Positions 22,113 to 41,297 of a DNA stretch of 64,000 nucleotides are shown piece by piece. The DNA comes from a virus (lineage: Duplodnaviria; Caudoviricetes). A program made the translations under genes and the position numbers. The notes below the pieces were generated by a model, which saw only the letters and a program-made list of their open reading frames with translations, made no database searches and was not told the DNA's origin. The first letter of the stretch is position 1. Every line of letters starts with the position of its first letter. Location: the IMG/VR virus record IMGVR_UViG_3300025889_000070; one strand, given 5' to 3'.

Positions 22113-23198
22113 ATGAGCAGACTTCATAAAAAGCATAGTTTACTAGATCTTTTTAAAAGAAGACTGAAAAATTTACCAATTAACTTGGACGATCATTTAT
22201 CCCTGGCGAAAAAAACCGTATCAGATCAAGTTGCTGTATGGAAAGATAATACAAAATATCAAGTTCTTTCTCAACGAATTAGTGAATTAGAGATTGCAAA
22301 AAATAACTATAATTTAGCAGTACAAGAGCTTGATGATGACATAAACAAATTACTACAAGAAAAAGAAAAAAGAATAATACAACGCGACTATAACAGAGTA
22401 AACACCTATGAAGCTGAAAATACAGTACTCAGGAATAGCTGGTTAAGCGCAAAAATAAAAGATGTATGTTCAGGAGTTATACAGGCAAACACATTTTGGC
22501 AGTATGCTAGTTTAGAGATTAATCCCGGAGATGGATGTCTTAGTCAGCTTATGAACGCGGCTGATCCACAGTACTGTATTGTAGCAGATAGCAGTGTTGA
22601 AAAACAGGTTAAGAGTAAATTCAACGAATTTTACAGTACTAGGAGATTAAGGTGTTATTCTAGTTTGGATAAGATACCTGATGCTACAGTAGGTTTTGCT
22701 AGTTGTATTAACTTATATGAATATCTACCCTTGGAAAATATCAAAGAAATTAGCACAACAACTTTTACAAAATTAAAGCCTGGTGGAAAGTTTTTAATAA
22801 CATATAATGACTGTGAGCAAAGATACAGTTTAGAGTTGTTAGATAATGAATTTAGGTGTTTGGCTACCAAAACTCTAATATCCAGTTTACATTTTGGTTT
22901 AGGATATGACGTGTTAGACTCTGGTAACACAGATAACGGTACCTGGAGTTATATGGTGCTACAAAAACCTGGAGAACTTACCAGCCAAAAACTAGCCAGT
23001 CCACAAGTTGAATTTGTTCCTAAATTTGTTCCTTATGCGGTTTGGCCCAGCGAACTACGGGAACTAGTGGAGGCAAAGAAAAGTAGGTCATCGGTTCAAT
23101 GGAGGGGTGATGTTATGGCATATTATCAACCTGCGTGGAACAATCTTAAAACCAGTGTACACAAATATATTGATACTTTTTATCACACAAATAGTTGA
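22113..23198 (+). CDS. class I SAM-dependent methyltransferase-like protein with N-terminal coiled coil
   Basis: Degenerate motif I LEINPGDG; later LYEYLP..TKLKPGGKFLITYNDC. Confidence 0.55.
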   Translation: MSRLHKKHSLLDLFKRRLKNLPINLDDHLSLAKKTVSDQVAVWKDNTKYQVLSQRISELEIAKNNYNLAVQELDDDINKLLQEKEKRIIQRDYNRVNTYEAENTVLRNSWLSAKIKDVCSGVIQANTFWQYASLEINPGDGCLSQLMNAADPQYCIVADSSVEKQVKSKFNEFYSTRRLRCYSSLDKIPDATVGFASCINLYEYLPLENIKEISTTTFTKLKPGGKFLITYNDCEQRYSLELLDNEFRCLATKTLISSLHFGLGYDVLDSGNTDNGTWSYMVLQKPGELTSQKLASPQVEFVPKFVPYAVWPSELRELVEAKKSRSSVQWRGDVMAYYQPAWNNLKTSVHKYIDTFYHTNS

Positions 23199-23992: not shown

Positions 23993-24835
23993 GTGTATCT
24001 TGACTACTGTGAATTTTATATAACTAATGTTTGTAATTTAACATGCTCTAACTGTAATAGGTTCAACAACTATAATGTAAAAGGTAGAGTAGATTTTAAC
24101 TATGATCTATACAAGCCCTGGGCAGATAAGCTAAATTTTGGTTATATCGGCATCATAGGCGGAGAGCCGTTGCTGCATCCAAACTTAAAAGATTGGATTA
24201 TAGGTATACACAGTCTTTGGCCTAATACTGCCATACAAATAACTACAAATGGAACGAGAATAAATTACGTAAGAGATTTATTCAATACATTTGTAGAGTG
24301 TAATGTAATCATAGAAATTACACTCCATGATACCATTATTGATAAGTTTGTATTTGAAGAGCTGGAAAAGTTTAAAGAAAAAGGCACAAACTGGCAGAAA
24401 AAAGTTATAGATAATACCCAGCTGGACAGGGACAATAAAGAAATGACCATCACTAATGAATATTTAACATGTGATCAAGGGCTAATGATTAAATTTAACC
24501 CTGGCTACTATTTTCAGTCAGTGCAAATTACAGAGAAGCAACATCAATCTAATAGGGTTAAACCTATTATAGGAGATCCAGAACGTGCCCATTATGTTTG
24601 TGGTATAAAAAACTCTCATACGTTTTACGAAGGTAAATTGTATAAATGCGGGTTTATTCCCAGTATAAAAGAATACTTTAAAACATATAATCATAACGAT
24701 GGTTGGGATCCTGTTTACAAATATGAAGCACATGAATTTGATTCTGACTTAACTAGATTGACAAAACCAGAGAATGTTTGCAGTTTATGTCCTAATAGAA
24801 TAAAAACTAGTAAAGTTATAACATCATTTAAATGA
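23993..24835 (+). CDS. radical SAM protein
   Basis: CNLTCSNC, IIGGEPLLHP, ITTNG; C-terminal Cys (YVC..YKC..CSLC). Confidence 0.9.
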   Translation: MYLDYCEFYITNVCNLTCSNCNRFNNYNVKGRVDFNYDLYKPWADKLNFGYIGIIGGEPLLHPNLKDWIIGIHSLWPNTAIQITTNGTRINYVRDLFNTFVECNVIIEITLHDTIIDKFVFEELEKFKEKGTNWQKKVIDNTQLDRDNKEMTITNEYLTCDQGLMIKFNPGYYFQSVQITEKQHQSNRVKPIIGDPERAHYVCGIKNSHTFYEGKLYKCGFIPSIKEYFKTYNHNDGWDPVYKYEAHEFDSDLTRLTKPENVCSLCPNRIKTSKVITSFK

Positions 24836-25719
24836 AAATATCGATTCCAAATTTAGATCTGTTCATAGCGCAAACTTGTAATTTGAGTTGTAGTGGTTGT
24901 ATTACTTTCAGTGACAGTAAACTAGTAAAGGGGATTACAAGATACAATCCGGATCATCTAGAATTCTGGAGTCAACACATACAACCAGCATACATTAATA
25001 TGTTTGGTGGTGAACCCTTACTTAATCCTGATCTGGAATTATGGATCGCTGGTTGTAGTGGATACTGGCCTGCTAGCAACCTAACCATACAAACAAATGG
25101 TGTAAAACTTACAGTCGATCATCTAGATTTAATAGACAAATATGGAGTAAGTTTTCGTATTAGCCAACACATAGCAGATTACAAGAGCACTATAACAGAG
25201 TTTATAGATGCTGCTCTAGCAACTGGCAAGTTTCAGCCCTGGACAAATGAAAATGGACCAGTACAAAATGGTTATGGTGAACAACGTGGCTGGATAAATG
25301 AAAGCGGTGCTAGTATACAATGGACAGAAAGTTATAGTGAAACAGTTTGGTGGCCATTTTATCAGGGAACTGCTGAAGATAGTAACCCTAGTTTCAGTTA
25401 TTTTAGCAATGATTTTGCTAGTAGTTGGAATACCTGTGTAGCCAAAACGTTTGTTAACATGTTTGAAGGTAATCTCTATAAATGTCCAGCAGTTGCTGGT
25501 TTGTTAATAAATGGGCATAGCCTAGGCCTAGATAAAAAAAATTACTGGTCGGACTGGTTTAATAACTATAAAAGGTTGAATATAGGCAGTGATAGTGCTA
25601 CAATAACTGAGTGGTTTAATGAACAGCAAGGACCACAAAGTTGTTGTAATATGTGCTCTAGAAATGTAAGCACAAACGTAGAAGTACAAACAGGAGTAAA
25701 TTCAAAGGTTAAACTATGA
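24832..25719 (+). CDS. radical SAM protein
   Basis: CNLSCSGC, MFGGEPLLNP, IQTNG; C-terminal C..YKC..CCNMC. Confidence 0.9.
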   Translation: MKISIPNLDLFIAQTCNLSCSGCITFSDSKLVKGITRYNPDHLEFWSQHIQPAYINMFGGEPLLNPDLELWIAGCSGYWPASNLTIQTNGVKLTVDHLDLIDKYGVSFRISQHIADYKSTITEFIDAALATGKFQPWTNENGPVQNGYGEQRGWINESGASIQWTESYSETVWWPFYQGTAEDSNPSFSYFSNDFASSWNTCVAKTFVNMFEGNLYKCPAVAGLLINGHSLGLDKKNYWSDWFNNYKRLNIGSDSATITEWFNEQQGPQSCCNMCSRNVSTNVEVQTGVNSKVKL

Positions 25720-27005: not shown

Positions 27006-27165
27006 AAACAAACAAGACTACACTGACTGGGCTTACTATCAGATGAAAAAGTACGGTATTCGTATGCCAGAAACATATTCAGCTGATGAATTGGAATATC
27101 TTAATCCCAGTGTTCCCAGAGATTTTATTGATAACCTTGTAAAGCAGAGAGACAACAATGGCTGA
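26992..27165 (+). CDS. small hypothetical protein (57 aa)
   Basis: Read by hand: MTGFKNKQDYTDWAYYQMKKYG...; fills the gap and overlaps both neighbours. Confidence 0.5.
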   Translation: MTGFKNKQDYTDWAYYQMKKYGIRMPETYSADELEYLNPSVPRDFIDNLVKQRDNNG

Positions 27166-27616
27166 AACCAGAGAAAGTCATGACGAATATATCCTACGTA
27201 AGATGCGTGAAGAAAGTCTAAAAGATCGCTTACGCAGAGCGGACAAAATGATCTGGGTAACCTTCCAGAAAGAAGGTATCCACAAGTATCCTGCTGCTCT
27301 CAACGATCCTAAACTAGCAACTGGCGATGAATATGATGTAAGTTTCCTGGGATATCCGCACAGGCACATATTTCATTTCCGTGTATGGATCGAAGTATTC
27401 CATGATGATCGCGATATTGAATTTATACAATTCAAGCGTTGGTTGGAAAACTTATATAAAGACGGAACATTAGAATTAGATTTTAAATCTTGCGAAATGA
27501 TCAGCGATGATTTGTACTTACAAATCCTGGAACGCTATCCAGGTCGTAATGTTCAAATTGAGGTAAGCGAAGACGGTGAGAACGGTTCACAAACTTTTTA
27601 TAACAAGGATATTTAA
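27158..27616 (+). CDS. dpdL: QueD-like T-fold protein, putative 7-carboxy-7-deazaguanine decarboxylase (DpdL-like)
   Basis: LGYPHRHIF matches the LxxxHRHxF signature as I recall it for DpdL; also DRDIEF, SCEMI, EVSEDGENG; co-occurs with folE, queD, queE and dpdA. Confidence 0.6.
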   Translation: MAETRESHDEYILRKMREESLKDRLRRADKMIWVTFQKEGIHKYPAALNDPKLATGDEYDVSFLGYPHRHIFHFRVWIEVFHDDRDIEFIQFKRWLENLYKDGTLELDFKSCEMISDDLYLQILERYPGRNVQIEVSEDGENGSQTFYNKDI

Positions 27617-27617
27617 A

Positions 27618-27830
27618 ATGAAACAAGAAGTAACACGAGTATTTGACGACCTAGACGATTTCCTACGTTTTTGTGCAACGTTTGGTCACCCCTATAACGA
27701 GGCTGATCTATATAACGACGAAAGCGAAGTATATCAGCAGTATCGCATGCTAAAAGATGGCAAGCGTATCAGCAACAACTGGATGCGAGATGCTAAAATT
27801 CATGGACACCGAATTTTTGGAAACAGATAA
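27618..27830 (+). CDS. hypothetical protein
   Basis: MKQEVTRVFDDLDDFLRFC...; start placed just after the upstream stop. Confidence 0.6.
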   Translation: MKQEVTRVFDDLDDFLRFCATFGHPYNEADLYNDESEVYQQYRMLKDGKRISNNWMRDAKIHGHRIFGNR

Positions 27831-28171
27831 TGTCTCCGGAACAAGCAAAATTTCCCTATAGTGTTGTTGTTAAAAGCGAACATTATACACAACGAGCAAA
27901 TCATCTACCTGTTCAAGGGGGAGCATTAAACGCTGGTTACACCGTCGCGCCGGCGCGACGGCCGGCACCAGTGGATGCCCTTTGTATGATCAGTAATTTA
28001 CTTGGCAAACACGGTCTACAGTACAATGTAGACTGGTGGTGGGAAGGTTTTGGTAGTGGAGATTATAATCCAAACACTGGGCATACTAGTAGGATACAAT
28101 TAAGGTTTAAAAAAGAAGAACACAAATTACTTCTCCATCTTAGCCCAGACATGGATCACAGGTTATGTTAA
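27830..28171 (+). CDS. hypothetical protein
   Basis: 113-aa ORF coupled to its neighbours. Confidence 0.5.
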   Translation: MSPEQAKFPYSVVVKSEHYTQRANHLPVQGGALNAGYTVAPARRPAPVDALCMISNLLGKHGLQYNVDWWWEGFGSGDYNPNTGHTSRIQLRFKKEEHKLLLHLSPDMDHRLC

Positions 28172-28992
28172 CAAATGTATTACTAATAGGTGGTGCTGGA
28201 TTTATAGGCGGGCATCTTAAAAATAAACTAGAGTCTAATGGTACCACTGTTGATGTCATTGACAAAAAACATGGAAAAAATATACTGGACGAATATGCTC
28301 TAGTAGCAGACAGAGAATATAGTCATGTAGTATTTTTAGCAGCAGAAGCAAATCTTAGAGCAGTAAAACGAAATCCTGTTGATGCTATCAAAACAATGAC
28401 TGTAGGTTTAATGAACTGTTTGAAATATTATTCAGACAGTCATTTTACATATATTAGTAGTAGTATGGTTTATGGCAACTGGGCTGGAGACAGTGTAAGT
28501 GAAAATGATGCTCGAGCTCCTATAGACTTGTATGGCCAACTTAAACTGGCTGGAGAAGGCATTGTTAAAGAATTACACAGCAACTATACCATTATAAGGC
28601 CCACGGCAGTTTATGGTCCTGGTGATGATCCTACTAGAGTACTTCCACACTTTATAAACCTAGCAAGACAAAATCAAATACTTACAGTAAAAGGGTCTAA
28701 CAACATGCTAGATTTTACGCATGTTGACGATATTATACAAGGAATTATACTGGGTATGAATAGACCTAAATACAGTACAGGCGTTTACAACATAAGTTAC
28801 GGTAACGCAGTACCCTTAGAAACTGTAGCTAAATACATTACAAAGTGCTTGGGCACCGGATCAGTTAAAGTAGATCCGCTGGACTTAGAATACCCAAAAC
28901 GTGGCAGCATGAATATCACAAAAGCAAGAACTGAACTGGGATACAAGCCTACAACGCACGTATTTGATGGTATAAATGAACTATTATCATAA
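28165..28992 (+). CDS. NAD-dependent epimerase/dehydratase (extended SDR)
   Basis: GGAGFIG, ISSSMVYG, YGQLK (YxxxK), IRPTAVYGP, DFTHVDD. Confidence 0.92.
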   Translation: MLTNVLLIGGAGFIGGHLKNKLESNGTTVDVIDKKHGKNILDEYALVADREYSHVVFLAAEANLRAVKRNPVDAIKTMTVGLMNCLKYYSDSHFTYISSSMVYGNWAGDSVSENDARAPIDLYGQLKLAGEGIVKELHSNYTIIRPTAVYGPGDDPTRVLPHFINLARQNQILTVKGSNNMLDFTHVDDIIQGIILGMNRPKYSTGVYNISYGNAVPLETVAKYITKCLGTGSVKVDPLDLEYPKRGSMNITKARTELGYKPTTHVFDGINELLS

Positions 28993-29001
28993 GGATATTT
29001 A

Positions 29002-30225
29002 ATGTATATTGGTTTTATAGGGTTAGGTAAACTTGGCATGCCCTGTGCTGAAGCAATGGCACAAAAATACGACGTAACAGGATACGATATACAGCCAAAA
29101 ACCAGCAACTTAGTAGACATAGTATCTAACTTAGAGCAAGCAGTTACAAACAAAGACCTAGTATTTGTTGCTATTCAAACACCACATCAGCAGGAATACG
29201 ATGGTAGCCAACCGTGCATGGACCTTGAACCCAAGGACTTTGATTACAGTCAAGTAAAGCAGTGCTTACAAGAAATAAACAAATATGCAAATAAGCACAC
29301 GTTAGTAGTTCTTATTAGCACAGTGTTGCCGGGTACGGTTCGCAGAGAACTAGCACCACTAATCACCCAGGCTCGTTTTATATACAACCCATACCTAATA
29401 GCAATGGGTAGTGTTAGTTGGGACATGATTAATCCAGAAATGGTTATCGTTGGTACAAAAAACGGCAGTTATACAGACGATGCTACATTAATTATTGACT
29501 TTTACAAGGAGTTAATGGAGAACAATCCACGTTATGTTGTAGGAACCTGGGAAGAAGCAGAAAGCATTAAGATTTTTTATAATACATTTATTAGTGCTAA
29601 ACTAAGTCTTGTAAACATGATCCAGGATGTTAGTATGAAATTGGGTAATATGAATGTTGATGTTGTAACGGATGCACTATCAAGAAGCACACAACGTATC
29701 ATGGGTCCACAATATATGAAAGCTGGCATGGGAGATGGCGGTCCTTGTCATCCCAGAGACAATATTGCTCTACGTTTTATGGTACAAGAACTTGGGTTAG
29801 GCTATGACTTGTTTGATGCTATTATGCAAGCCAGAGAAATACAAGCTGAAAACGTTGCTTTTAAACTAGTAGATTTAGCTAATGAATATAATATGCAGAT
29901 TGTCATACACGGTAAAGCATACAAGCCACAAGTTCCATATTTAGAAGGCAGCTATAGTTTGCTAATTGGACACTACTGTAAAAAACTAGGGTTTGATCCT
30001 GTATATGTTGATCCAGAAACCGGTGATGCATTTGAACCTACAGAGCCTTGTGTTTTTTTACTAGCGCACAGCGCCAACACTACTTATAAGTATACTAACA
30101 ATCAACCAGTTGATACTAATACAATGTACTGTTTAGTGCCTGACGGAAGTGTTGTTGTTGACATGTGGAGAAACTATACCAATAACAAGTGTACAGTTAT
30201 TCATTATGGAAATACACGTGACTAA
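29002..30225 (+). CDS. ugd: UDP-glucose/GDP-mannose dehydrogenase family
   Basis: GLGKLG, FVAIQTP, STVLPGT, YNPY, AESIKIFYNTF, GGPCHPRD. Confidence 0.88.
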   Translation: MYIGFIGLGKLGMPCAEAMAQKYDVTGYDIQPKTSNLVDIVSNLEQAVTNKDLVFVAIQTPHQQEYDGSQPCMDLEPKDFDYSQVKQCLQEINKYANKHTLVVLISTVLPGTVRRELAPLITQARFIYNPYLIAMGSVSWDMINPEMVIVGTKNGSYTDDATLIIDFYKELMENNPRYVVGTWEEAESIKIFYNTFISAKLSLVNMIQDVSMKLGNMNVDVVTDALSRSTQRIMGPQYMKAGMGDGGPCHPRDNIALRFMVQELGLGYDLFDAIMQAREIQAENVAFKLVDLANEYNMQIVIHGKAYKPQVPYLEGSYSLLIGHYCKKLGFDPVYVDPETGDAFEPTEPCVFLLAHSANTTYKYTNNQPVDTNTMYCLVPDGSVVVDMWRNYTNNKCTVIHYGNTRD

Positions 30226-30733
30226 TTGGCACATAGACAAAATAGAATCTTTTTGGGACAATGATCATCAATTCCTAAACTACGAATCAGAAAATTTTAA
30301 CAATCCCGACGATATTTTAAATTGGCAAGGAAAAGGATATAAACCACCATTTGTTGGTGAACTCTGCGACATGCGTAAACCACAGGCTTGGTACACAGAT
30401 AATGTCGTGGAATACTTTAAAAACAAGTATAGCATAGAAAACGTTGGTACAAGTTTTTACAGAATGTCCACAGGCATTATACTTCCTAAACACCGAGACA
30501 CATACAAAAAATACAGAGAATTGTTTGGGGTTAGTGTACACCAAATCCAACGTATTATAGTTTTTTTAGAAAACTGGCGCAGCGGACATTATTTTGAAAT
30601 TGAAGGCACACCAATTGTAGATTGGCAAGCCGGAGATTATGTTTGGTGGAGAGGCGATGCAGAACACATGGCAGCTAACCTAGGAACGGAATATAGATAT
30701 ACGCTACAGATAACAGGACATGATGGATTATAA
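30206..30733 (+). CDS. 2OG-Fe(II) oxygenase / cupin-fold hydroxylase
   Basis: LPKHRDTY (HxD), RIIVFL, WQAGD..H.AAN..RYTLQITG. Confidence 0.65.
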   Translation: MEIHVTNWHIDKIESFWDNDHQFLNYESENFNNPDDILNWQGKGYKPPFVGELCDMRKPQAWYTDNVVEYFKNKYSIENVGTSFYRMSTGIILPKHRDTYKKYRELFGVSVHQIQRIIVFLENWRSGHYFEIEGTPIVDWQAGDYVWWRGDAEHMAANLGTEYRYTLQITGHDGL

Positions 30734-31325
30734 GGTTCTTGAAGATTTTGAAAACTTATTAAGTAAGTATACTGGTGCTCCTTATGTTGTTCTTACTGAC
30801 AGTTGTACTCATGCTGTAGAACTTTGCATACGTCAGCAAAAGTGGCAGGGCCCGGTTATACTTCCTCCAAAAACATATATTAGCATACCCATGACCATGC
30901 ATAAACTTGGTTTACAAGTTTACTGGGATCACGAATATAACTGGAAACACCAGTATAGAATTGCGCCCACAAATATCTGGGATAGTGCTCGAGCATTTGA
31001 TAAAAATATGTACAAGCCAGGTGCTTGGCAGTGTTTAAGTTTCGGCTGGGACAAAAGGTTAGCCATTGGCCATGGTGGGGCTATATTGTTAGACAAAAAA
31101 AGCGATTACATTTCGCTTAAATGTATGGCATATGACGGCAGATTTCTAGATATAAAACCCTGGCAAGAACAATCTAATTGGCAGTTAGGTTTTCATTATA
31201 ATATGAGACTGGAAGACGCTGCTAAAGGTATAGAACTATTATCTCAACCTGATAAATTGCCAATGATGTATACGCAGGTAAAAGAGTATCCTGACGTGAG
31301 CAAAATTAAAATTAAACTTGACTAA
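30720..31325 (+). CDS. DegT/DnrJ/EryC1-like PLP-dependent sugar aminotransferase (short form)
   Basis: TDSCTHA, TYISIP, WDSA, LSFGWDK (PLP Lys), GGAILL, GFHYNM. Confidence 0.75.
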   Translation: MMDYKVLEDFENLLSKYTGAPYVVLTDSCTHAVELCIRQQKWQGPVILPPKTYISIPMTMHKLGLQVYWDHEYNWKHQYRIAPTNIWDSARAFDKNMYKPGAWQCLSFGWDKRLAIGHGGAILLDKKSDYISLKCMAYDGRFLDIKPWQEQSNWQLGFHYNMRLEDAAKGIELLSQPDKLPMMYTQVKEYPDVSKIKIKLD

Positions 31326-31346
31326 TCGTCTAAATAATCTTATCAT
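31318..31346 (+). promoter_or_regulatory. sigma70-type promoter TTGACT-N17-TATCAT
   Basis: Upstream of the dpdA-like gene. Confidence 0.6.
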
Positions 31347-31371
31347 TAATAATAAAAAAAGGTACAACTAT

Positions 31372-32835
31372 ATGGCAGTTAGAATAAATCTAAGTGAAAA
31401 AAATCATGACTATGCAGTGTTCACACCTGCGCTTAGTGGCTTTTATCAGAGTTATGTAAGCAAGCAACAGCAAGATCCCAATCATGTAGAACAATCACGT
31501 ATACCAGCAAAGTTTGAAAATGGTATTGAAGGCTTGAACTTCTTAAATCCTGAGCAGGGATACTTTACCTACAATCATGTTCTTTACAGTGCTGGACATG
31601 CTGAACTAGACATGGCTAAAGCAGTGGATCGTGAAAGTATGATCCATAAGCGTGATAGAAACAATACTGTGCTTATTGGTGACAGTGGCGGGTTCCAGAT
31701 TAGTAAAGGTGTGTGGCAGGGTAACTGGCTAGAGCCTGAAGGGCAATGTGCTGACACAGACAAAAAGCGTGGTGTAGTTCTCAACTGGTTAGAAAATACA
31801 GCAGACTACAGCATGGTACTGGATATCCCCACAAACGGTTTGAACTTCATAGACGAAACAACAGGCAAACCTAGATGTGGTTTGAATGACTATGCTGAGT
31901 TCCGTGATGCTACTCGAGCCAACAATAACTATTTCTTTAAACATAGACAGGGCAAAACAAAGTTCCTAAACGTGCTACAGGGCAGTACATATGAACAAGC
32001 AGATGACTGGTTTGATAATGTATGCTTGCCTATTGTAAATGAAACAAGTGGATGGGCATTTGGTGGTGTACAAAAAACAAACCTCAACCACAGCCTAAGA
32101 AGGTTGCTATATCTCAAAGAACTTGGATTGCTACAAAAAGCAGAATGGATTCACTTCTTGGGCACAGGTAGACTTGACCAGGGTGTAATGTATACTGCTA
32201 TGCAACGGGCTATCAGAAAGTCTATAAATCCGTTCCTTACAATAAGCATGGATTGTGCAAGTCCATTTATTGCTACAGCAAACGGCCAAGTGTATACTGA
32301 CAATACATTTAACAACAAGCGTATTGGCTACAACATGGTACACATGGTAGACGAAAAGGATCCCGCAAACAAAGAAGCACCCTGGCCCTGGGACGACTCA
32401 CCTATTGGCGCCAGACTTACCTGGCGTGATGTTAACTGGTATGATCCAGGTGACTTAAACAAGATTGGTAAAGAAGGCAAAACCAGTTGGGATAGTTTTG
32501 CATACTGTTTGATGATGGGACATAACATCTACAAGCATATTGATTCAGTACAAATGGCTAACCGTCTAATGGCAAGGCCAATTGGTATGAATGAATGGAT
32601 ACCAGACCAATATTTGCAATTCCAGGATCTATGTGTAGACTTGTTTGCTAGAGATTATAACAAGAGCATGGCTGCTATTGATGCAGAACTTGACAAGCAT
32701 GAAGGTTTGATTAGTAAACTAAGCCGTATTAAAAATCTTAAAAACACAAACGCATTTGAGAGTTTGTTTAGTTTTGATGTTCCAACAACCAACACTGATA
32801 TAGACAGTAGCCAGGAAGAGGACGATGCCCGATGA
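31372..32835 (+). CDS. dpdA: DpdA / TGT-superfamily 7-deazaguanine DNA transglycosylase
   Basis: DSGGFQ, MVLDIP, VLQG, GWAFGG, IHFLG, SMDCASP TGT-fold motifs; clustered with folE. Confidence 0.8.
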   Translation: MAVRINLSEKNHDYAVFTPALSGFYQSYVSKQQQDPNHVEQSRIPAKFENGIEGLNFLNPEQGYFTYNHVLYSAGHAELDMAKAVDRESMIHKRDRNNTVLIGDSGGFQISKGVWQGNWLEPEGQCADTDKKRGVVLNWLENTADYSMVLDIPTNGLNFIDETTGKPRCGLNDYAEFRDATRANNNYFFKHRQGKTKFLNVLQGSTYEQADDWFDNVCLPIVNETSGWAFGGVQKTNLNHSLRRLLYLKELGLLQKAEWIHFLGTGRLDQGVMYTAMQRAIRKSINPFLTISMDCASPFIATANGQVYTDNTFNNKRIGYNMVHMVDEKDPANKEAPWPWDDSPIGARLTWRDVNWYDPGDLNKIGKEGKTSWDSFAYCLMMGHNIYKHIDSVQMANRLMARPIGMNEWIPDQYLQFQDLCVDLFARDYNKSMAAIDAELDKHEGLISKLSRIKNLKNTNAFESLFSFDVPTTNTDIDSSQEEDDAR

Positions 32836-33908
32836 ACACCATTTATATTATATGTCTGGAGCCTATTGATCAGAGATATACTAAACAGTGGTTTACAAAC
32901 ATTCCCAGTATACTGGAACAGCGTATCCAGGAACAGGGCTTAGATTATCGTGTAGTTACTATTGAAGGTGACACAGTGCCTGATAATACTACAGCAGGTG
33001 CGTTTTTGGACTTTGGTGCTACAAACGTCTACAAAGCAAGCCAGACTGTAACTGTTAGCAAGATGTTTAGTCAGGGAGACATCAAGCCTGGTGATAAGTT
33101 TTTAGTTACAGATGCCTGGAACTTTATTATTACACCTATCAAATACATGAGTGACCTGCTGGACATTCCAGTAGAAATACACAGCATCTGGCATGCTGGG
33201 GCATATGATCCCAGTGACATCCTGGGTTACAAAATGAACAAGCCATGGCCCTGGGATGCTGAGCGTAGTTGGTTTTATAGCAGTGACTATAACTACTATG
33301 CCAGTGAAAATCATCGTAAAATGTTTTTAACTAACTTAAACATACCAGAAGAATATCATCACAAAGCAGTGCGAAGTGGCCAGCCACACGAATTGATAAT
33401 CGATGATCTTGTTAGGCATCAGAATACAGACAAACAAGATCGTGTTATGTGGCCACATCGTTACAATGCTGACAAGCAACCAGCGATCGCAGAAGATCTT
33501 GCTGCCAACTTTGACATGGTTATTACTCAGAAAATGAACTTGAACAAAGCAGATTACTATGCTACAATGGGCACAAGTAAACTTATTTTTAGTTGTGCAC
33601 TACATGAGAACCTTGGCATCAGTGTCATGGAAGCAGTGCTAACTGGAGCAGTTCCAGTGGTGCCGGATCGTTGTAGTTACAGTGAAATGTATTTAGATGA
33701 ATTTAAATATCCCAGTGAGTGGACAGAGGATCTGGAAAGTTATCAGAAAAATAAACACAGGGTAGCAGAGTTTATTCAGGATAAACTGGATAACTACTCT
33801 AATTATCATAATCTTATTCGTGAGCAACAGAGTATTCTCGTACGAGATTATTTAAGCAGCAATATTATGATGGACAAATTATTAGAAAAAAAGGAACTTA
33901 GTGCATGA
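32832..33908 (+). CDS. GT-B fold glycosyltransferase (GT4-like)
   Basis: MWPHRYNADKQP..SCALHENLGISVMEAVLTGAVPVVPDRCSYSE (Ex7E motif). Confidence 0.75.
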   Translation: MNTIYIICLEPIDQRYTKQWFTNIPSILEQRIQEQGLDYRVVTIEGDTVPDNTTAGAFLDFGATNVYKASQTVTVSKMFSQGDIKPGDKFLVTDAWNFIITPIKYMSDLLDIPVEIHSIWHAGAYDPSDILGYKMNKPWPWDAERSWFYSSDYNYYASENHRKMFLTNLNIPEEYHHKAVRSGQPHELIIDDLVRHQNTDKQDRVMWPHRYNADKQPAIAEDLAANFDMVITQKMNLNKADYYATMGTSKLIFSCALHENLGISVMEAVLTGAVPVVPDRCSYSEMYLDEFKYPSEWTEDLESYQKNKHRVAEFIQDKLDNYSNYHNLIREQQSILVRDYLSSNIMMDKLLEKKELSA

Positions 33909-34594
33909 GAAATACTTCCGAACAAATTATAGAACGTATAAAACAGTCCAATGGCCGTTACTGGGCTGGAGATAATATTAGTGAATATCTAGGGCCAGGT
34001 GACAAAGAAGCACTTATTGAAGAACTTACTGTTAAGTTTGAAAGTGTACTGGATAGTTTGGTGATCGATCGTCACACTGATCCAAACAGTCAGGATACTG
34101 GCAGACGTTTGGCCAAGATGTACATTCGAGAGATAATGAGTGGTCGTTACAATCCTAAACCTAACGCAACAGCATTTCCTAATCATACAAATGAGCGATA
34201 TGATGGTATGCTAGTCGTGCGTAGTGAACTTAAAAGTATGTGTTCACACCACCATCAACCAGTCACTGGTGTAGCATACATTGGAATTATTGCTGCTGAT
34301 ACTCTCATTGGTTTAAGTAAATATACACGAATAGCACAATGGTGTGCTCGCCGTGGAACTCTACAAGAAGAACTTGCCATGGATATTGCCCGAGAAATTC
34401 AGGCAGCAACTGGCAGTAATGATGTTGGCGTATATATTCAGGCTACACATGGTTGTTGTGAAAATCGCGGCATAGGTGCTCATAGTAGCCTAACACAAAC
34501 TACAGTTTTGCGTGGCAGTTTCCACAATGATCCTGCTTGCAAGAAAGAGTTTATGGATAACATTAAACTACAACAAGGATTTGCTCCAAGATGA
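33905..34594 (+). CDS. folE: GTP cyclohydrolase I
   Basis: DTGRRLAKMY, SMCSHHHQP, GLSKYTR, LQEEL, HGCCENRG. Confidence 0.95.
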   Translation: MRNTSEQIIERIKQSNGRYWAGDNISEYLGPGDKEALIEELTVKFESVLDSLVIDRHTDPNSQDTGRRLAKMYIREIMSGRYNPKPNATAFPNHTNERYDGMLVVRSELKSMCSHHHQPVTGVAYIGIIAADTLIGLSKYTRIAQWCARRGTLQEELAMDIAREIQAATGSNDVGVYIQATHGCCENRGIGAHSSLTQTTVLRGSFHNDPACKKEFMDNIKLQQGFAPR

Positions 34595-35301
34595 TACTGT
34601 TATTTGATGTAGACGGTACTCTTACTCCGAGCAGGGGAGAAATGAATCTTGAGTTTGCTAATAAGTTTCTCAAGTTAAAAAACTTTAGTTTAGTCACTGG
34701 CAGTGACTGGCCAAAAACAGTGGAACAAGTTGGCACAAAAATATTTGAAGATGCTGATTATTCATTTAATTGTAGCGGCAATGATGTTTACAGCAAAGGA
34801 AAACACATAGCCAAAAATAACTGGAAACCCGGCACAGACTTACTGGATTACCTTAGCAAGTGTTTAGGGGAATCTAGTTATCCTGAAAAATATGGTAACC
34901 ATATTGAAATACGAACTGGAATGCTTAACTTTAGTATAGTAGGAAGAAATGCTATAGGTAAGCAAAGAACAGATTATTATAACTGGGACGTTCAAATGCT
35001 GGAACGTGACAGAATATGCAGAGGAATCAAATATCATTTTCCAGAACTTTGTGCTGAAGTTGGTGGTGAAACTGGTGTTGACATTTATCCAGTTGGTAAT
35101 GATAAATCCCAGTGCTTAAAATATTTTGGTGGTCGACCAATACATTTTTTTGGTGATTCTTGTCACGCCGGCGGGAATGATTATAGCATAGCAAGTATAC
35201 TGGAATCTAGATCAGATTGTAAAGTATATCATGTCAATGATTGGAAGGAAACATGGCAGATCCTAAACCAAAAATATATGAATCACCTGATGGTGGATTA
35301 A
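34591..35301 (+). CDS. HAD-IIB phosphomannomutase (eukaryote-type PMM)
   Basis: FDVDGTLT, VTGSD, EIRTGMLNFSIVGR, GGETGVDIYP, FFGD..GGNDY. Confidence 0.85.
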   Translation: MILLFDVDGTLTPSRGEMNLEFANKFLKLKNFSLVTGSDWPKTVEQVGTKIFEDADYSFNCSGNDVYSKGKHIAKNNWKPGTDLLDYLSKCLGESSYPEKYGNHIEIRTGMLNFSIVGRNAIGKQRTDYYNWDVQMLERDRICRGIKYHFPELCAEVGGETGVDIYPVGNDKSQCLKYFGGRPIHFFGDSCHAGGNDYSIASILESRSDCKVYHVNDWKETWQILNQKYMNHLMVD

Positions 35302-35664: not shown

Positions 35665-38600
35665 ATGAACAAAGCATATATTGGTGCTTTGCTTGCTTCA
35701 ACTGCTCTGCTCAGTGCTTGTGTTCCTGGAAGTGGAACTCTAAGCTCTGCTGCAAGTACTGTAAAGTCTGCGTTTAACGCTAACAACGCTTTTGCTGTTA
35801 TTAGTGGGCAAATCTCAGAACTTGAAAATGTAGTTGCGGTGGCGCAAAGCAGCGCAAGCCTAAGCGCATTGGTCAATCCAACTAATGAAGACAGGACCAA
35901 TGCTGCCAACGTCGTTAGCAAGATTGATGCTGTTATCCGTGGCTGGGAAGATCATAAAGCCAACATGGATCCTAATCTACTTGCCGTTAAACTTAGTACA
36001 GCAGAATGGCGGCAAGCAGAAGCTGTTGTAAAACTACTCAAGGATGATCTCCGTCCCGTAGTTGACCGTGTAGTTCAGGGCGGCAACTATGATACCAAAG
36101 ACTTTGAATTCCTCGCAAAGAAGGAATCACTTGAACAAAAGATTAATGAAAAGAAGGCTGCCATTTTTGAAGCAGCCCAGCCCACTGTTATTAGCGCAAC
36201 TACCAGTGCAGTAACAGTAAACACTGGAGCGTCGTCCATGTCTCCTGAACGTGTCAAAAGCACTGAAGTTGTAGACGGTACACAAACGGTAACAGGTGGT
36301 AGTAGCATAAGCGATCTAACTCGTACAGCAACCTGGACCAGGACAACTACTCTGAGCATGGAGTATGATCGTACCTGGACTGTTGATGTACAGGATGTTA
36401 CTACAACTGTTTTCAGTAATGGTACTACATCTGAATCTCGTGGTACAGTTCGCAGCATTACAAACACTCAGACGTTTGATGCTCAACCACAGGTTAGCAG
36501 CCAGGAGATGACGCAAAACATTGGTTATACTGTTACAGAGCAGAATACACCAACTGTTAGTGTTACTAATGGAGAACCCACTGTTGTTGCTGAACACGTA
36601 GATAGGGTTGAACAAACAACTCAGGAAAATGGAAGTATTTTACATACTACTATTAGGACTACTACAACTACTACTACCACTCCTGTGACAACTACTACAA
36701 CTTATCCAAAAATTAGTGTCTACAACTATGAAGATGGACACTCTTTTACACACGATGCTACTGATGAAGTTTTGAGTAGCACAGTGGATGATGTTGTTGT
36801 TGCTACCAGTGAGGCTGTCGTAGAAACTATTACTGAGCATGTTGTAACAACAGAAACTACTACTAATGAAGTTGTTACACAGGTTACAGAAGGTAATCCA
36901 GTATTTGTTACTACACACGAAGATGTTACTACTACAAATACTGTAAACGGCGTAACTACTACTACAGTTACTCGTAACTATACTACAACTGCTACAGTGA
37001 CAACTACTACCACGACAAGTACTACCCCTGTAACTGTTAAAGTGTGGACAGACGGTAAACAAGAAACTATTCGTGGCGAAACTGTTGTAACAACGGAAAC
37101 CAGTGAAAGTGTAGTAACTGACCAGTGGGCAAAAGTAATGGAACAAACCACTACTGATGCTGTTGCGGAAGAAACTACAGAGTCAGCAGGAAGTGTTAAT
37201 CTTGCTGACCTAGGAACCCCAACGCCTGGAATGAGCAGCAATCCAGCAGACTTTAAGACCAATGAGTTTACCCTTGGTGCTACTGGTGGCTGGACTGACA
37301 ACAAAAGCATTATCAAGGCTGATGTTGCTTATAGTCGTGGTTGGACTGGTAAAGGTAGTTTGATTACCATTGCTGACACTGGCTATAATACCACGCACAC
37401 TGACTTAGAAGCAAAACACACTTTTAATACTATCACCGGTGATTCGACTAACATGGAAGATAATGTTGGACACGGATCACATGTTATGGGTATTGCAGCT
37501 GGCCGTAGAAACGGAACTGGTATGCATGGTGTAGCATTTGATGCTGATGTTGCTGTAGTTAAAGTAACAGATACCACAGGTTACAGTTTCGCTCGTGCTA
37601 GAACTGGCGCGACTTGGGCTGCTAACCTAGGCAGTGTTGCTTACAACGTAAGTGCTAACTATAGCTCAGACAGTGCTTTGCGTAGCAGTATTGTAGCAAC
37701 AGGTGATGGCACCTATAAGTCCACGCACTATTACTACGGTGTTAATGGCTATAATGGTGTACTACAAGAAGCCCAATTATGGAAAACCGCACTGGGTACT
37801 GAACAGATCCTAGTAAACAGTGCCGGCAACCAGACCAGCGATGTTGTATTTGGAACAGGACAAATGGCAACTGCTACAGAAAATGGTCAGCTTATCCTAG
37901 GCGGACGAATGCTGGTAGTTGGCAACTGGGACCAGAATAACAACGTTGTTCAGGGTGCAAAAGCTGGTCATCTTTGTACCACATACGATGAAGCAGCAGC
38001 AACTTGTAAAGACGCTGCTAGCATGCGGGACTTTTACATTCTTGCTCCAGGCATGAGTGTTAAGAGTGCTAACAAAGGAGATCCAAACGCTATCGTAGAC
38101 ATGAGTGGTACTAGTATGGCAGCACCACAGGTTACTGGCGCACTTGCTATTCTTAACCAAATGTGGCCACACATGAAAGGTGAAAACCTTGTCAAGTTGG
38201 TAACTACTACTGCCAGCAAGGACTTGCCTGGATACAATCCAGGTGTACACGGCAGCGGTTTGCTGGATTTGGATCGTGCTACACAGCCTGTAGGTGCTAC
38301 TGGTATCCCAACAAGTGGTCGTACCAGTGGCGCTATCGCAAGCCTGAGCACACTAAGCGGTGGTGCCCTAGTTGGCTCAATTAGCAGTGAAGCATTTGCT
38401 CCGCTTGCAAATGTTATGGTACTAGACAGCTTTGAGCGTGATTACACTATTGACCTTAGTGAAGCACAAAAGGTTGATACACGCCCAGGTAGCTATGTAG
38501 AATCTCTAGCATTTGGCAACGGCGACTACGACGCTTATGGAAACCTTGCCAGCAGTAATGCTAATCTTGCACTACCAAACATGCTAGGCTATACTGGTAA

Positions 38601-39231
38601 TATTAAAATCAACGAGAACGCAACTGGCGACTATGCATTTAGTGTTGGTTACAATCTTGTTGATGATAAGGATACCAAAGTAGATTTTGGTTTGGGCTTT
38701 GTCAAAGAAACAGGTAAGTTTCTTAACAACGTTCAGCAGGGCTTCATGGGAGTTGGTGAAAATCACACCACAAACTATGCCAGCCTAAAGATTAAACACA
38801 ACTTCAATGATACAGTGTTTGGGTTTGGTAATCTCCAGCTGGGTATGACAGATGTTGAATCCAGCAAGGATTTTAGCCTAGTTACAGGATACAGCAATCT
38901 AGTAAGTCGCAGTTTTGCTGTAGGCGCTGGGGTAAAGCCTGCTCAAGGCTGGAAACTCGGGGCTACATATAGTCAGCCACTAAATATCATGAGTGGCAAA
39001 ATGAACTACAAAGTTCCTGTAGCCAGAACCTTGGATGGTCAAGTTCAGTTTAATGAAGGAAGTGCTGATGCAAGCACAAAAGTTATTGAACATGACCTGG
39101 GTCTTTTTGTACAATATAAGATGGATGAAAACTTTAGCTTTGCTGGCTATGGTGAACACAGAATAAACGTTGCCGGTACAAAAGGAAACAGCCAGACTAA
39201 CGTAGGTGTAAAATTTAACTGGCAGTTCTAA
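35665..39231 (+). CDS. lipoprotein S8 subtilisin-like serine protease autotransporter with Thr-rich stalk
   Basis: Lipobox LSAC (Cys19); triad IADTG / GHGSHVMG / GTSMAAP; C-terminal amphipathic beta-strands ending VKFNWQF. Confidence 0.85.
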   Translation: MNKAYIGALLASTALLSACVPGSGTLSSAASTVKSAFNANNAFAVISGQISELENVVAVAQSSASLSALVNPTNEDRTNAANVVSKIDAVIRGWEDHKANMDPNLLAVKLSTAEWRQAEAVVKLLKDDLRPVVDRVVQGGNYDTKDFEFLAKKESLEQKINEKKAAIFEAAQPTVISATTSAVTVNTGASSMSPERVKSTEVVDGTQTVTGGSSISDLTRTATWTRTTTLSMEYDRTWTVDVQDVTTTVFSNGTTSESRGTVRSITNTQTFDAQPQVSSQEMTQNIGYTVTEQNTPTVSVTNGEPTVVAEHVDRVEQTTQENGSILHTTIRTTTTTTTTPVTTTTTYPKISVYNYEDGHSFTHDATDEVLSSTVDDVVVATSEAVVETITEHVVTTETTTNEVVTQVTEGNPVFVTTHEDVTTTNTVNGVTTTTVTRNYTTTATVTTTTTTSTTPVTVKVWTDGKQETIRGETVVTTETSESVVTDQWAKVMEQTTTDAVAEETTESAGSVNLADLGTPTPGMSSNPADFKTNEFTLGATGGWTDNKSIIKADVAYSRGWTGKGSLITIADTGYNTTHTDLEAKHTFNTITGDSTNMEDNVGHGSHVMGIAAGRRNGTGMHGVAFDADVAVVKVTDTTGYSFARARTGATWAANLGSVAYNVSANYSSDSALRSSIVATGDGTYKSTHYYYGVNGYNGVLQEAQLWKTALGTEQILVNSAGNQTSDVVFGTGQMATATENGQLILGGRMLVVGNWDQNNNVVQGAKAGHLCTTYDEAAATCKDAASMRDFYILAPGMSVKSANKGDPNAIVDMSGTSMAAPQVTGALAILNQMWPHMKGENLVKLVTTTASKDLPGYNPGVHGSGLLDLDRATQPVGATGIPTSGRTSGAIASLSTLSGGALVGSISSEAFAPLANVMVLDSFERDYTIDLSEAQKVDTRPGSYVESLAFGNGDYDAYGNLASSNANLALPNMLGYTGNIKINENATGDYAFSVGYNLVDDKDTKVDFGLGFVKETGKFLNNVQQGFMGVGENHTTNYASLKIKHNFNDTVFGFGNLQLGMTDVESSKDFSLVTGYSNLVSRSFAVGAGVKPAQGWKLGATYSQPLNIMSGKMNYKVPVARTLDGQVQFNEGSADASTKVIEHDLGLFVQYKMDENFSFAGYGEHRINVAGTKGNSQTNVGVKFNWQF

Positions 39232-39241
39232 GGAGGAAGAA

Positions 39242-39724
39242 ATGCAACTAGTGCAGATCACATTAGAAAACTATAAGAAACTTAAATTTAATATCGATGA
39301 TGATCCAGTACGGCCTGAGCTAACTTTAGACTTTAGACTAGCACCAGGGCGTGAGATTTGGGCACTAGTTGCAGATGACGAATACAAGGCGGCGGTCTGT
39401 GTGGCATACTGCAACGAAGTACCTATTACTGTAAAAGAACTTGATTATTACAGTCAAGCAGCGCATCAAGACGATCAACATGGTAATATTGCAATCGCAT
39501 ACACAGTTTGGACCAAGCAACCTGGTGCTGGAAGAAAACTAATATTGGACATGATAAAACTATTAGAACAACAACGTGTCCTGCGCCTAGTAACTCTAAG
39601 TCCAAAAACAGCAATGGCGAGAAAATTCCATTTAAGAAATGGCGCCTTTATTTTTCAATTAAATACTGAGACAGACAACTATGAATATAAACTTTATCAA
39701 GAACAGGAAACGAGTAATACTTGA
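39242..39724 (+). CDS. hypothetical protein, possible GNAT-like fold
   Basis: YTVW..QPGAGRKLI..LVTLSPKTAMARKFHLRNGA. Confidence 0.45.
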   Translation: MQLVQITLENYKKLKFNIDDDPVRPELTLDFRLAPGREIWALVADDEYKAAVCVAYCNEVPITVKELDYYSQAAHQDDQHGNIAIAYTVWTKQPGAGRKLILDMIKLLEQQRVLRLVTLSPKTAMARKFHLRNGAFIFQLNTETDNYEYKLYQEQETSNT

Positions 39725-40124
39725 CAGACTGGGAAACAACCCTTATCTTGTTAGATACTACTTGTTCCTTAAAGATAGAAAATGGTTTCCATTCAATATT
39801 TTCCTACACAAGTTTCTAAGCAGTGACCCAGATGAACTACATGACCATCCCTGGCCCTACTTTACACTTATACTACGCGGCGGATACTGGGAAACAACAC
39901 CAAATGGCAGATTTTGGAGACAGCCTGGGCATTTTAGGTTTTGTAAACCAAAAGATTTACATCGCATTGAACTAGAGCCTGATATTACCGCCTGGACTCT
40001 TTTTATTCCTGGCCCAAAACTTAGAGAATGGGGTTTTATAGTAAACGGAAAGTGGATGCATAACGAGCAATATTTTGCTTGGAGAAAACAAAAGGTAAAA
40101 AATGAAAAAGTTGTATCTTTCTAA
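39681..40124 (+). CDS. cupin-fold protein
   Basis: LHDHPWPYFTLILRGGYWE..LHRIEL..WTLFIPGP. Confidence 0.7.
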   Translation: MNINFIKNRKRVILDRLGNNPYLVRYYLFLKDRKWFPFNIFLHKFLSSDPDELHDHPWPYFTLILRGGYWETTPNGRFWRQPGHFRFCKPKDLHRIELEPDITAWTLFIPGPKLREWGFIVNGKWMHNEQYFAWRKQKVKNEKVVSF

Positions 40125-40635
40125 TAAACAGATTAAAAAAAGCATACACGATATTGTTTCACAAATGTATGCTGATAACTGGCGACCTGACTACATTGTA
40201 GGTATTACTCGTGGCGGTCTTGTCCCCGCTGTTCTTATGAGCCATCTAACAGGTATTAAGATGCATACCCTTGATGTTAGATTACGTGATGCCGCTGGCG
40301 AAAATGAATCCAACTACTGGATGGCAGAGGATGCTTTTGGCAACCATAGAACTGATGATCTACCAAGTTATAGCAATCCGCATCTTAGGAAAAATATTTT
40401 AATCTTGGATGATATCAATGATAGCGGAGCAACTCTTGAATGGATCAAAAACGATTGGCCCAGCGGATGCTTGCCAAATGATCCTGCTTGGAATGATGTT
40501 TGGCACAATAATGTTCGTTTCGCGACCATTGTAAATAATCTATCAAGTCCCTTTGAAGTTGATTATTCCTGTATCGAAATAAACAAAGCGGAAGAAGATG
40601 TTTGGGTAGTTTTTCCCTATGAGGAATGGTGGTAA
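40102..40635 (+). CDS. type I phosphoribosyltransferase (xanthine/guanine PRT-like)
   Basis: VGITRGGLVPA, PRPP loop ILILDDINDSGATL, WVVFPYE. Confidence 0.85.
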   Translation: MKKLYLSNKQIKKSIHDIVSQMYADNWRPDYIVGITRGGLVPAVLMSHLTGIKMHTLDVRLRDAAGENESNYWMAEDAFGNHRTDDLPSYSNPHLRKNILILDDINDSGATLEWIKNDWPSGCLPNDPAWNDVWHNNVRFATIVNNLSSPFEVDYSCIEINKAEEDVWVVFPYEEWW

Positions 40636-41204: not shown

Positions 41205-41225
41205 ATAGAAAGTACTTGTTATTAT
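41197..41225 (+). promoter_or_regulatory. sigma70-type promoter TTGACT-N17-TATTAT
   Basis: Upstream of the queD leader. Confidence 0.7.
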
Positions 41226-41231
41226 AATAAT

Positions 41232-41297
41232 AAGAGGACTTAGTGTTCGTTCCCTCTTTAAATATTCCGCGCACTCCATAACCAAGGAGTATAAATT
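41232..41297 (+). promoter_or_regulatory. structured 5' leader of queD (candidate riboswitch-like element)
   Basis: Stem AAGAGG/CCTCTT; loop AGTG complementary to downstream CACT; ACTCC/GGAGT hairpin covers the SD. Confidence 0.45.

Follow-up and report, generated by a model that had tools for sequence, protein, structure and literature searches.

Background

The described dpd systems of phages include those of Cellulophaga phage phiST, whose DNA carries 2'-deoxy-7-deazaguanine (dDG), as well as of Campylobacter phage CP220, which carries dADG, the 2'-deoxy form of 7-amido-7-deazaguanine (PMC10516641). The phiST protein CGPG_00067 was named DpdL by Cui et al. and proposed to be a decarboxylase of 7-carboxy-7-deazaguanine (CDG) (PMC10516641). 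Here we describe a stretch of 64,000 nt, hereafter the window, which is part of a large marine phage (IMG/VR record IMGVR_UViG_3300025889_000070). Like systems of the phiST and CP220 type, it combines enzymes predicted to form CDG, a DpdL with the motif LxxxHRHxF, no QueC and an enzyme of the tRNA-guanine transglycosylase (TGT) superfamily near replication genes. Our subject is the glycosyltransferase (GT) gene that lies in the window between a gene for a DpdA-like transglycosylase and folE. A functional link between this GT and the deazaguanine module is strongly supported, and we hypothesize, at what we consider even chances, that the enzyme adds a sugar to the deazapurine installed by DpdA, either on DNA or as the free base.

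To our knowledge, eight 7-deazaguanine derivatives occur in phage DNA, none of which bears a sugar, and we know of no DNA glycosylation other than on pyrimidines. A literature search returned no report of glycosylated 7-deazaguanine in DNA, nor of a GT in these gene clusters.

Association of the glycosyltransferase with DpdA and DpdL

The association was followed in 91 IMG/VR loci around the DpdA-like gene and, for cultured phages, in 50,697 phage records. A profile hidden Markov model (HMM) detected a GT homologue in every one of the 45 IMG/VR loci that extend 5 kb or more past the DpdA-like gene on its downstream side, always within 5.4 kb of that gene, an association far beyond chance. The usual order in the 91 loci is family B DNA polymerase (PolB), a structural gene, the DpdA-like gene, one to three small or variable genes, DpdL, a small open reading frame (ORF), GT and FolE, followed variably by a cupin, a phosphoribosyltransferase (PRTase) and QueE. 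Loci L016, L018, L030 and L085 were considered as exceptions lacking the GT and rejected as such, since the profile HMM finds a divergent GT of about 400-430 aa in each of them. These longer forms lie at L016:10348-11655, L018:9011-10225, L030:9263-10510 and L085:8622-9923, and in L085 the divergent GT is followed by epimerase-like and DegT-like genes.

An earlier note on the window had made its proposal of a glycosylated deazaguanine depend on conserved proximity of dpdA and GT. Their adjacency or co-occurrence proved to be strongly conserved, on hundreds of metagenomic phage contigs and in at least six lineages (the PA5oct group, ACP17, X1/BUDD, BCSR5, Phosso and a marine clade). Every clear GT homologue among the phage records adjoins DpdL, which lies within 4 kb in 17 of 17 cultured-phage records (PA5oct group, Phosso, ACP17, BCSR5, X1, BUDD). 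The nearest cultured relative is the Pseudomonas jumbo phage PA5oct, which shares synteny with the window around PolB; next to its DpdA-like gene come a homologue of the GT (36% identity, E 3e-69) and then one of DpdL. The order is QueD-FolE-x-DpdA-GT-DpdL-QueE in ACP17, FolE-...-GT-DpdA-DpdL-QueE in X1 and similar in BCSR5; in Phosso it is DpdL-GT-x-FolE, and about 170 kb separate this group from the DpdA-like gene. Given the changed gene orders and the presence of two DpdA subfamilies, the link survives both rearrangement and a change of the DpdA subfamily, and the cultured lineages are the more telling evidence because they are independent of shared synteny.

The converse association fails, as phiST and several T4-like phages carry DpdL without the GT. 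The GT carriers are thus a subset of the DpdL carriers, as one would predict for a step added on after DpdL.

In marine loci, a conserved protein family of about 170-180 aa without a Pfam match (A5 family, X172; L051:7938-8483, L020:7156-7665, L093:6323-6721 and others) separates the DpdA-like gene from DpdL; in ACP17 its place is between FolE and DpdA. As neither the window nor the loci of PA5oct, Phosso, X1 and BCSR5 contain it, it was rejected as a core member.

Fold and motifs of the glycosyltransferase

The structure model of the GT (predicted local distance difference test, pLDDT, 89.4) indicates that the protein is a retaining GT-B enzyme of the GT4 type, composed of two Rossmann domains and with the EX7E and R/K donor motif intact. 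Its structural neighbours include BshA, PglA, PimA, MshA and sucrose-phosphate synthase (Foldseek E 7.1e-11; VIA Z up to 25.9), and the residues E259-x7-E267 (EX7E), R210 and K215 are invariant across seven lineages. The 'DNA alpha-GT' of S-TIM5 came only 44th in a BFVD structure search with the GT. Pfam Glycos_transf_1 scored 15.9 bits on the window GT, below the gathering score of 26.4, and matched 26 of 36 family members at E <= 1 (best E 1.2e-5); the GT profile gave nothing useful against PDB sequences. The family comprises 2,520 cluster representatives at E <= 1e-3.

The N-terminal half of GT-B enzymes generally binds the acceptor, and 19 of the 32 residues invariant across the seven GT lineages fall in this half. 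The hosts of GT-carrying phages span Alpha- to Gammaproteobacteria, and the conservation of acceptor-side residues across phages of such different hosts suggests a common acceptor supplied by the phage.

A kinship with the tRNA-queuosine mannosyltransferase QTMAN/GTDC1, which is built of the Pfam domains QTMAN_N and Glycos_transf_1, was considered and, at the level of sequence, rejected. QTMAN_N (PF12038) matched none of the 36 family members at E <= 1, its profile had no match at E <= 10 in five related phage genomes, and QTMAN is missing from the top Swiss-Prot and AFDB-cluster structure lists for the GT. When the lineages are compared, all that stays invariant of the stretch 'PHR...K.P' common to the GT and QTMAN is one Arg and one Lys, in our reading the general GT4 motif for the donor phosphate. 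Among the neighbours of the GT in the ESM Atlas there is a cluster of 70 bacterial QTMAN_N proteins (Pseudomonadota, automatically named tRNA-queuosine mannosyltransferase), with template modelling scores to the GT of 0.74/0.71, compared with 0.72-0.77 for generic GT4 clusters.

The DpdA-like transglycosylase

The long ORF of the DpdA-like protein opens at TTG 31318, and ATG 31372, preceded by AAGG, is the likely start. By sequence the protein had no match to Pfam TGT (PF01702) and stayed below the cut-off of TIGR00449 (tgt_general; 18.8 bits, cut-off 47.6), and its profile had no match among PDB sequences. Modelled with AlphaFold from 36 homologues (pLDDT 85.8), it falls unambiguously in the TGT superfamily, with a predicted (beta/alpha)8 barrel. 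The top Foldseek matches of the model were all tRNA-guanine transglycosylases (E 4.8e-9, prob 1.0), and the five best chains of an exhaustive VIA search all belong to the superfamily, i.e., ArcTGT (Z 18.6), QTRT2 (18.4), TGT (18.1), the bacterial DNA preQ0 insertase DpdA (7ui4, 16.4) and Cap10 (13.9), followed by generic barrels at Z 11.3.

Residues invariant in the 36 sequences are G103-D104-S-G-G-F-Q109 (GDSGGFQ), the LDxP aspartate D151, QG and FDCASPF (F-D294-C295), motifs that would correspond to the catalytic and base-binding motifs of TGT, with both catalytic Asp motifs kept. From the motifs, we equate the aspartates of DSGG(F/Y)Q and (F/Y)DC with D102 and D280 in the numbering of Zymomonas mobilis TGT, and the mutants named in PDB titles among the Foldseek matches agree with this. 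The TGT zinc site CxCxxC...H was not found in the alignment, in which C295, nearly invariant, is the sole conserved cysteine. We infer from fold and motifs that the enzyme would exchange guanine in DNA for 7-deazaguanine.

Of the described subfamilies DpdA1-4, the comparison covered DpdA3 directly: hhalign gave 49.9% with phiST DpdA3, 80.8% with ACP17 DpdA and 6.6% with X1 DpdA. The transglycosylases of ACP17 and X1 form a subfamily different from that of the window, for which tblastn in cultured phages finds relatives only in PA5oct-like phages, Phosso and one Vibrio phage. The DpdA-like family as scored includes 7,465 of 8,000 candidates at E <= 0.001, with a typical identity of about 45%.

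Gene content of the locus

All eight ORFs, from epimerase to phosphomannomutase (PMM), which the earlier note had described at 28165-35301, are present there. The ATGA coupling it had claimed for dpdA, GT, folE and PMM is read from the sequence as three overlaps at 32832 (dpdA/GT), 33905 (GT/folE) and 34591 (folE/PMM), so that the GT is coupled to dpdA upstream and to folE downstream. Its family labels are strong for the short-chain dehydrogenase/reductase (SDR) epimerase, the UDP-sugar dehydrogenase Ugd, FolE and PMM; 'DpdA' and 'GT' were assigned here by fold and motifs, below the curated thresholds. The module extends beyond these coordinates, with genes of the DpdL type, QueD, a QueE-like enzyme and a purine PRTase also in the window. 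The features are as follows.

27158-27616, + strand: DpdL-family T-fold protein, QueD paralogue, proposed CDG decarboxylase; LxxxHRHxF motif; phrog_17812, E 3.1e-35
27576-27830, + strand: small conserved ORF, 84 aa; homologous to ORFs of 80-88 aa between DpdL and GT in marine loci L020 and L051
28165-28992, + strand: SDR nucleotide-sugar epimerase or decarboxylase of the UDP-glucuronate kind; Pfam Epimerase, E 4.4e-28
29002-30225, + strand: UDP-glucose/nucleotide-sugar 6-dehydrogenase (Ugd); phrog_9148 UDP-glucose dehydrogenase, E 5.4e-100; TIGR03026, E 3.6e-42
30206-30733 (ORF from 30149), + strand: small cupin with a metal triad of the 2-oxoglutarate (2OG)/Fe(II)-oxygenase type; Pfam Asp_Arg_Hydrox, weak, E 0.0099
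30720-31325, + strand: short DegT-like pyridoxal phosphate (PLP) enzyme, 201 aa; Pfam DegT, E 1.5e-12
31372-32835, + strand: DpdA-like transglycosylase, 487 aa; TGT fold from predicted structure and motifs
32832-33908, + strand: GT4-type GT-B glycosyltransferase, 358 aa, from predicted structure and motifs
33905-34594, + strand: GTP cyclohydrolase I (FolE); Pfam, E 1.6e-39; NF006824, E 6e-40
34591-35301, + strand: phosphomannomutase-like HAD-IIB enzyme (PMM); Pfam PMM, E 1.7e-32; phrog_29277, E 1.5e-58
39681-40124, + strand: cysteine-dioxygenase (CDO)-like cupin, accessory module gene; phrog_4786, E 9.6e-38
40102-40635, + strand: 6-oxopurine-type PRTase; Pfam Pribosyltran, E 1.2e-12; nearest NCBIfam model xanthine PRTase, E 3.3e-9
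41298-41777, + strand: QueD/6-pyruvoyltetrahydropterin synthase (PTPS) family, 6-carboxytetrahydropterin (CPH4) synthase; Pfam PTPS, E 6.6e-16; TIGR03367 QueD, E 1.3e-9
41995-42876, + strand: QueE-like radical S-adenosylmethionine (SAM) enzyme, CDG synthase; five QueE NCBIfam models at the N-terminus, E 2.9e-10 to 5.1e-9

The window has a GC content of about 0.39 and encodes a T4-type PolB at 19438-22089, RNase H, Clp and other phage genes. A search for near-identical DNA among cultured phages gave no match to it, and its encoded proteins are found on contigs of up to 220 kb. The Clp genes encode a ClpB/Clp-type AAA_2 ATPase domain (56-946) and a ClpP-family protease (1807-2355). A weak Anp1-like match lies at 4140-4811, and the ORF of 1526 aa at 5272-9852 has a cytidylyltransferase-like domain at its N-terminus (E 1.1e-7). 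Between the structural gene and the DpdL region, two radical SAM genes homologous to each other lie in tandem (280 and 295 aa; 23993-25719, and 22113-23198), adjoining a weak methyltransferase-like ORF; they could encode additional enzymes of base or sugar tailoring. PMM is followed by an ORF of 114 aa and a protein of 1188 aa with an S8 subtilase domain (35665-39231), a position kept in the close clade L002-L010. Directly 3' of the QueE-like gene lies a histidine-phosphatase gene (42967-43530, similar to 2,3-bisphosphoglycerate-dependent phosphoglycerate mutase; Pfam E 8.3e-38), whose product may have a phosphorylated intermediate, sugar or nucleotide, as its substrate.

Deazaguanine pathway genes

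The signature LxxxHRHxF of DpdL replaces the CxxxHGH of QueD (PMC10516641). The ORF at 27158-27616, whose conserved part starts near 27245, fits this signature with L-GYP-HRH-I-F, and tblastn relates it to phiST CGPG_00067 (E 2e-9), ACP17 (61% identity) and Phosso (73%); on these grounds it is of the DpdL type and a predicted CDG decarboxylase. QueD of the window is 68% identical to the annotated QueD of ACP17, and the QueE-like gene has homologues annotated as QueE in PA5oct (E 9e-29), ACP17, X1 and BCSR5. QueC was not seen among the ORFs scanned in the window, which is only part of the genome, and was not found in the complete genomes of PA5oct, ACP17 and Phosso, so the canonical pathway would end at CDG, short of preQ0.

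Two further genes are not universal. The CDO-like cupin follows FolE in many marine loci and in X1, with no BLAST match in PA5oct, ACP17 or Phosso, and the purine PRTase shows conservation across marine loci and, more weakly, in PA5oct. In the module of Xanthomonas phage X1 and in BCSR5, a homologous protein of the 3'-phosphoadenosine 5'-phosphosulfate (PAPS)-reductase/PP-loop type (L096:5332-5865 and L097:5152-5799; Pfam E 1e-13) and two uncharacterised proteins lie just 5' of the GT and may provide a lineage-specific, QueC-like ATP-dependent step. A preQ1 riboswitch upstream of queD was considered and rejected, as no Rfam family reached threshold in the window; the only match upstream of queD at E <= 10 was a chance snoRNA (E 1.9, 41216-41304).

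Sugar-nucleotide and tailoring genes

The best solved relatives of the SDR include a UDP-glucuronic acid (UDP-GlcA) 4-epimerase, the 6zl6 group, MoeE5 and UDP-glucuronic acid decarboxylases, and such UDP-glucuronate-acting relatives fit its position beside Ugd. In the small cupin, with a probable start at ATG 30206, an alignment shows H96-x-D98, H154 and R164 to be invariant in seven homologues; a sequence search gave no solved relative, and Pfam and NCBIfam gave no significant family match. The DegT-like protein keeps the PLP-binding aspartate D88 and the lysine motif S107-F108-x3-K112 invariant in 12 homologues, and its profile finds NtdA, perosamine synthetase and ArnB in the PDB (best E 2.4e-7), with the lysine aligned to the lysine region of NtdA. 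It does not have the two-domain DegT/DnrJ/EryC1 architecture of about 360-440 aa, being about half the normal length; its 12 homologues all measure 192-207 aa, compared with 359-445 aa in the PDB relatives. That the gene is a pseudogene fragment was ruled out, since about 200 aa is the conserved length.

The epimerase, Ugd, cupin and DegT-like set 5' of dpdA is restricted to the close clade of the window (L002-L011). Other lineages have other sugar enzymes within the module, i.e., a DegT-like gene directly after the GT, GFO/IDH/MocA and alcohol dehydrogenase (ADH)-type oxidoreductases, a UGDH-family enzyme or a radical SAM enzyme, and in some of them PMM lies between PolB and the structural gene. 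No sugar-nucleotide genes adjoin the GT in PA5oct, ACP17 and Phosso. The sugar-nucleotide genes are lineage-specific add-ons outside the core of the module. The earlier note had placed the GT within an amino-sugar operon; a route to a uronic or amino sugar remains plausible from Ugd, the SDR and the PLP enzyme that keeps its lysine, and what falls away is the standing of these genes as core members. The genes would fit a donor sugar derived from a uronic acid and perhaps aminated.

Proposed pathway and alternative explanations

In the pathway that we propose, FolE, QueD and the QueE-like enzyme would turn GTP into CDG, a stage supported by homology. The DpdL-type enzyme would convert CDG into the base that is used, 7-deazaguanine by the precedent of phiST, and the DpdA-like enzyme with its TGT fold would swap guanine in the phage DNA for the DpdL product. 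The GT4 enzyme could then, as its gene association suggests, move a sugar from a nucleoside diphosphate (NDP)-sugar onto the deazapurine, either on DNA, like the T4 glucosyltransferases, or, in the manner of queuine, while the base is still free and not yet inserted. In the lineage of the window the donor would be tailored by Ugd, the SDR acting on UDP-GlcA, the 2OG-oxygenase-like cupin, the mini DegT-like PLP enzyme and PMM, and other lineages may draw on a host NDP-sugar or a different tailoring set. The purine PRTase plausibly recycles the released guanine.

The association of the GT with the module upholds one part of the earlier claim of a glycosylated 7-deazaguanine. Its suggestion of the CDG carboxyl as attachment point is argued against by DpdL, which accompanies every clear cultured GT homologue and is also found in marine contigs. 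As the DpdL step should leave no hydroxyl, the linkage could be unconventional, e.g., a C7 C-glycoside made by a GT4 enzyme. We tentatively extend the proposal, with somewhat less than even confidence, to PA5oct, ACP17, X1, BCSR5, Phosso and the abundant marine clade, which may all swap guanine for a sugar-bearing 7-deazaguanine, the sugar being diversified by lineage through cassette-like genes. Support for the sugar transfer comes from the gene association, the translational coupling of the GT and its conserved acceptor-side residues, and also from reports on two of these phages. PA5oct DNA resists five restriction enzymes with G in their sites, and a nuclease that senses hypermodified DNA targets this phage (PMC12191111). 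Cui et al. could not reconstitute dDG from dpdA and dpdL of ACP17 and suggested a possible need for other enzymes (PMC10516641); the GT of ACP17 lies between these two genes.

Several points weigh against a sugar on the DNA deazapurine. What would connect the two is gene association, part of which is conserved synteny beside PolB within the marine clade. Plain 7-deazaguanine offers no hydroxyl or carboxyl for a conventional O-glycoside, so an unusual linkage or an extra oxidation is required, and the candidate oxygenases for the latter are not universal among the GT carriers. PhiST has DpdL, DNA fully substituted with dDG (PMC10516641) and no GT, showing that the GT is not needed for insertion. 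The fold of the GT, of the generic GT4 kind, gives no clue to the acceptor. Its closest structural neighbours are enzymes for small molecules or lipids, and the T4 alpha-GT (1y6f) comes only 36th, with Z 18.6. Both the GT (isoelectric point, pI, 5.1) and the DpdA-like protein (pI 5.45) are acidic, which makes the isoelectric point useless as a proxy for DNA binding.

The generic fold also suits an action outside nucleic acids, on host envelope polysaccharide or lipopolysaccharide or on virion or host proteins, with the co-location a matter of genome organisation. Ugd, epimerase and PMM are typical of polysaccharide genes, other genes of the window appear sugar-related (the weak Anp1-like match at 4140-4811 and the cytidylyltransferase-like domain in 5272-9852), and the block is syntenic beside PolB within the marine clade. 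We nevertheless consider this explanation unlikely, as the association holds in at least six lineages with differing gene orders and two DpdA subfamilies, with the GT in the middle of a que/dpd operon in ACP17 and X1, and all clear GT homologues in the phage records adjoin DpdL. The ATGA coupling of the GT to dpdA and folE and the retention of acceptor-side residues in phages of hosts with differing envelopes also speak against it. A T4-like glycosylation of a hydroxymethylated pyrimidine in DNA, independent of the deazaguanine genes, would follow the habit of the known phage DNA glycosyltransferases, and PA5oct and Phosso do encode ThyA-family proteins. The complete genome of ACP17, however, has the GT and no ThyA-family gene, which disfavours this possibility; moreover, the T4 alpha-GT is not a close structural neighbour, and the restriction pattern of PA5oct indicates a modified G (PMC12191111). 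Taken together, we regard a pyrimidine target as very improbable.

The GT could also serve deazaguanine or pterin chemistry with a product that does not enter DNA, acting on a free intermediate or a by-product such as a pterin, protecting or activating CDG through a group attached transiently, or being a non-catalytic partner of DpdA. Pterin synthesis, too, is entered through FolE and T-fold enzymes, 7-deazaguanine has no obvious acceptor, and the neighbours of the GT include the small-molecule GT4 enzymes BshA, MshA, LmbT and SenB. A cyanobacterial tetrahydrobiopterin alpha-glucosyltransferase glycosylates a pterin, and the UDP-glucose:tetrahydrobiopterin glucosyltransferase 5zer is of similar length (354 aa) and reaches Z 20.9, no closer to the GT than many others. 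The GT, on the other hand, travels specifically with DpdL, DpdA and QueE and not with FolE alone, there is no universal reductase for a biopterin route, and a phage of Pseudomonas, Acidovorax or Xanthomonas would have no evident gain from pterin glycosides. A partner role has a parallel in the requirement of bacterial DpdA for the partner protein DpdB (PMC10516641), but the invariance of EX7E and the donor-binding residues makes a purely structural function unlikely. The probability of a product outside DNA is in our view low, though not negligible.

If the preferred reading of a sugar added to the DpdA-installed deazapurine holds, it would give the first glycosylated purine in any DNA, and a deazaguanine module with a GT as fixed member would amount to a new class of DNA hypermodification, set beside a DpdA-like family of more than 7,000 proteins. 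Such a base could account for the modified G of the therapeutic jumbo phage PA5oct and for the failure of ACP17 dpdA and dpdL in E. coli. It also predicts new substrates for type IV restriction enzymes, END-type nucleases and anti-phage DNA glycosylases. The hypothesis lends itself to a direct test, as several carriers have been cultured.

Comparison with known systems

The closest cultured counterpart is PA5oct (Wroclawvirus), in which EST35_0316, EST35_0317 and EST35_0318 follow PolB and correspond to the DpdA-like protein (38.6% identity), the GT (36%) and DpdL (53%). Unlike in the window, their order is DpdA-GT-DpdL, no sugar-nucleotide genes are adjacent and all three are annotated as hypothetical. 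With the T4 alpha- and beta-glucosyltransferases the GT shares that it is a phage GT-B enzyme tied to a base-modification pathway, with a proposed logic of base first and sugar second. It differs in its proposed target, a purine analogue instead of hydroxymethylcytosine (hmC), and shows no specific structural closeness to them; the T4 enzymes belong to the CAZy families GT72 and GT63, whereas the GT of the window has the GT4 motif EX7E. The eukaryotic QTMAN/GTDC1 is likewise a GT-B enzyme that puts a sugar onto a 7-deazaguanine derivative placed by TGT, as is proposed here, but the acceptor proposed for the phage, whether DNA or a free base, lacks queuosine's cyclopentenediol, and the QTMAN_N profile has no match in the phage enzyme. 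The transglycosylase of the window, at 487 aa, is much longer than the 259-aa DpdA3 of phiST and only marginally alignable with it (hhalign 50%). Unlike the systems of the phiST and CP220 type, the module of the window has a GT4 glycosyltransferase as an integral part, with sugar-nucleotide tailoring genes attached to it.

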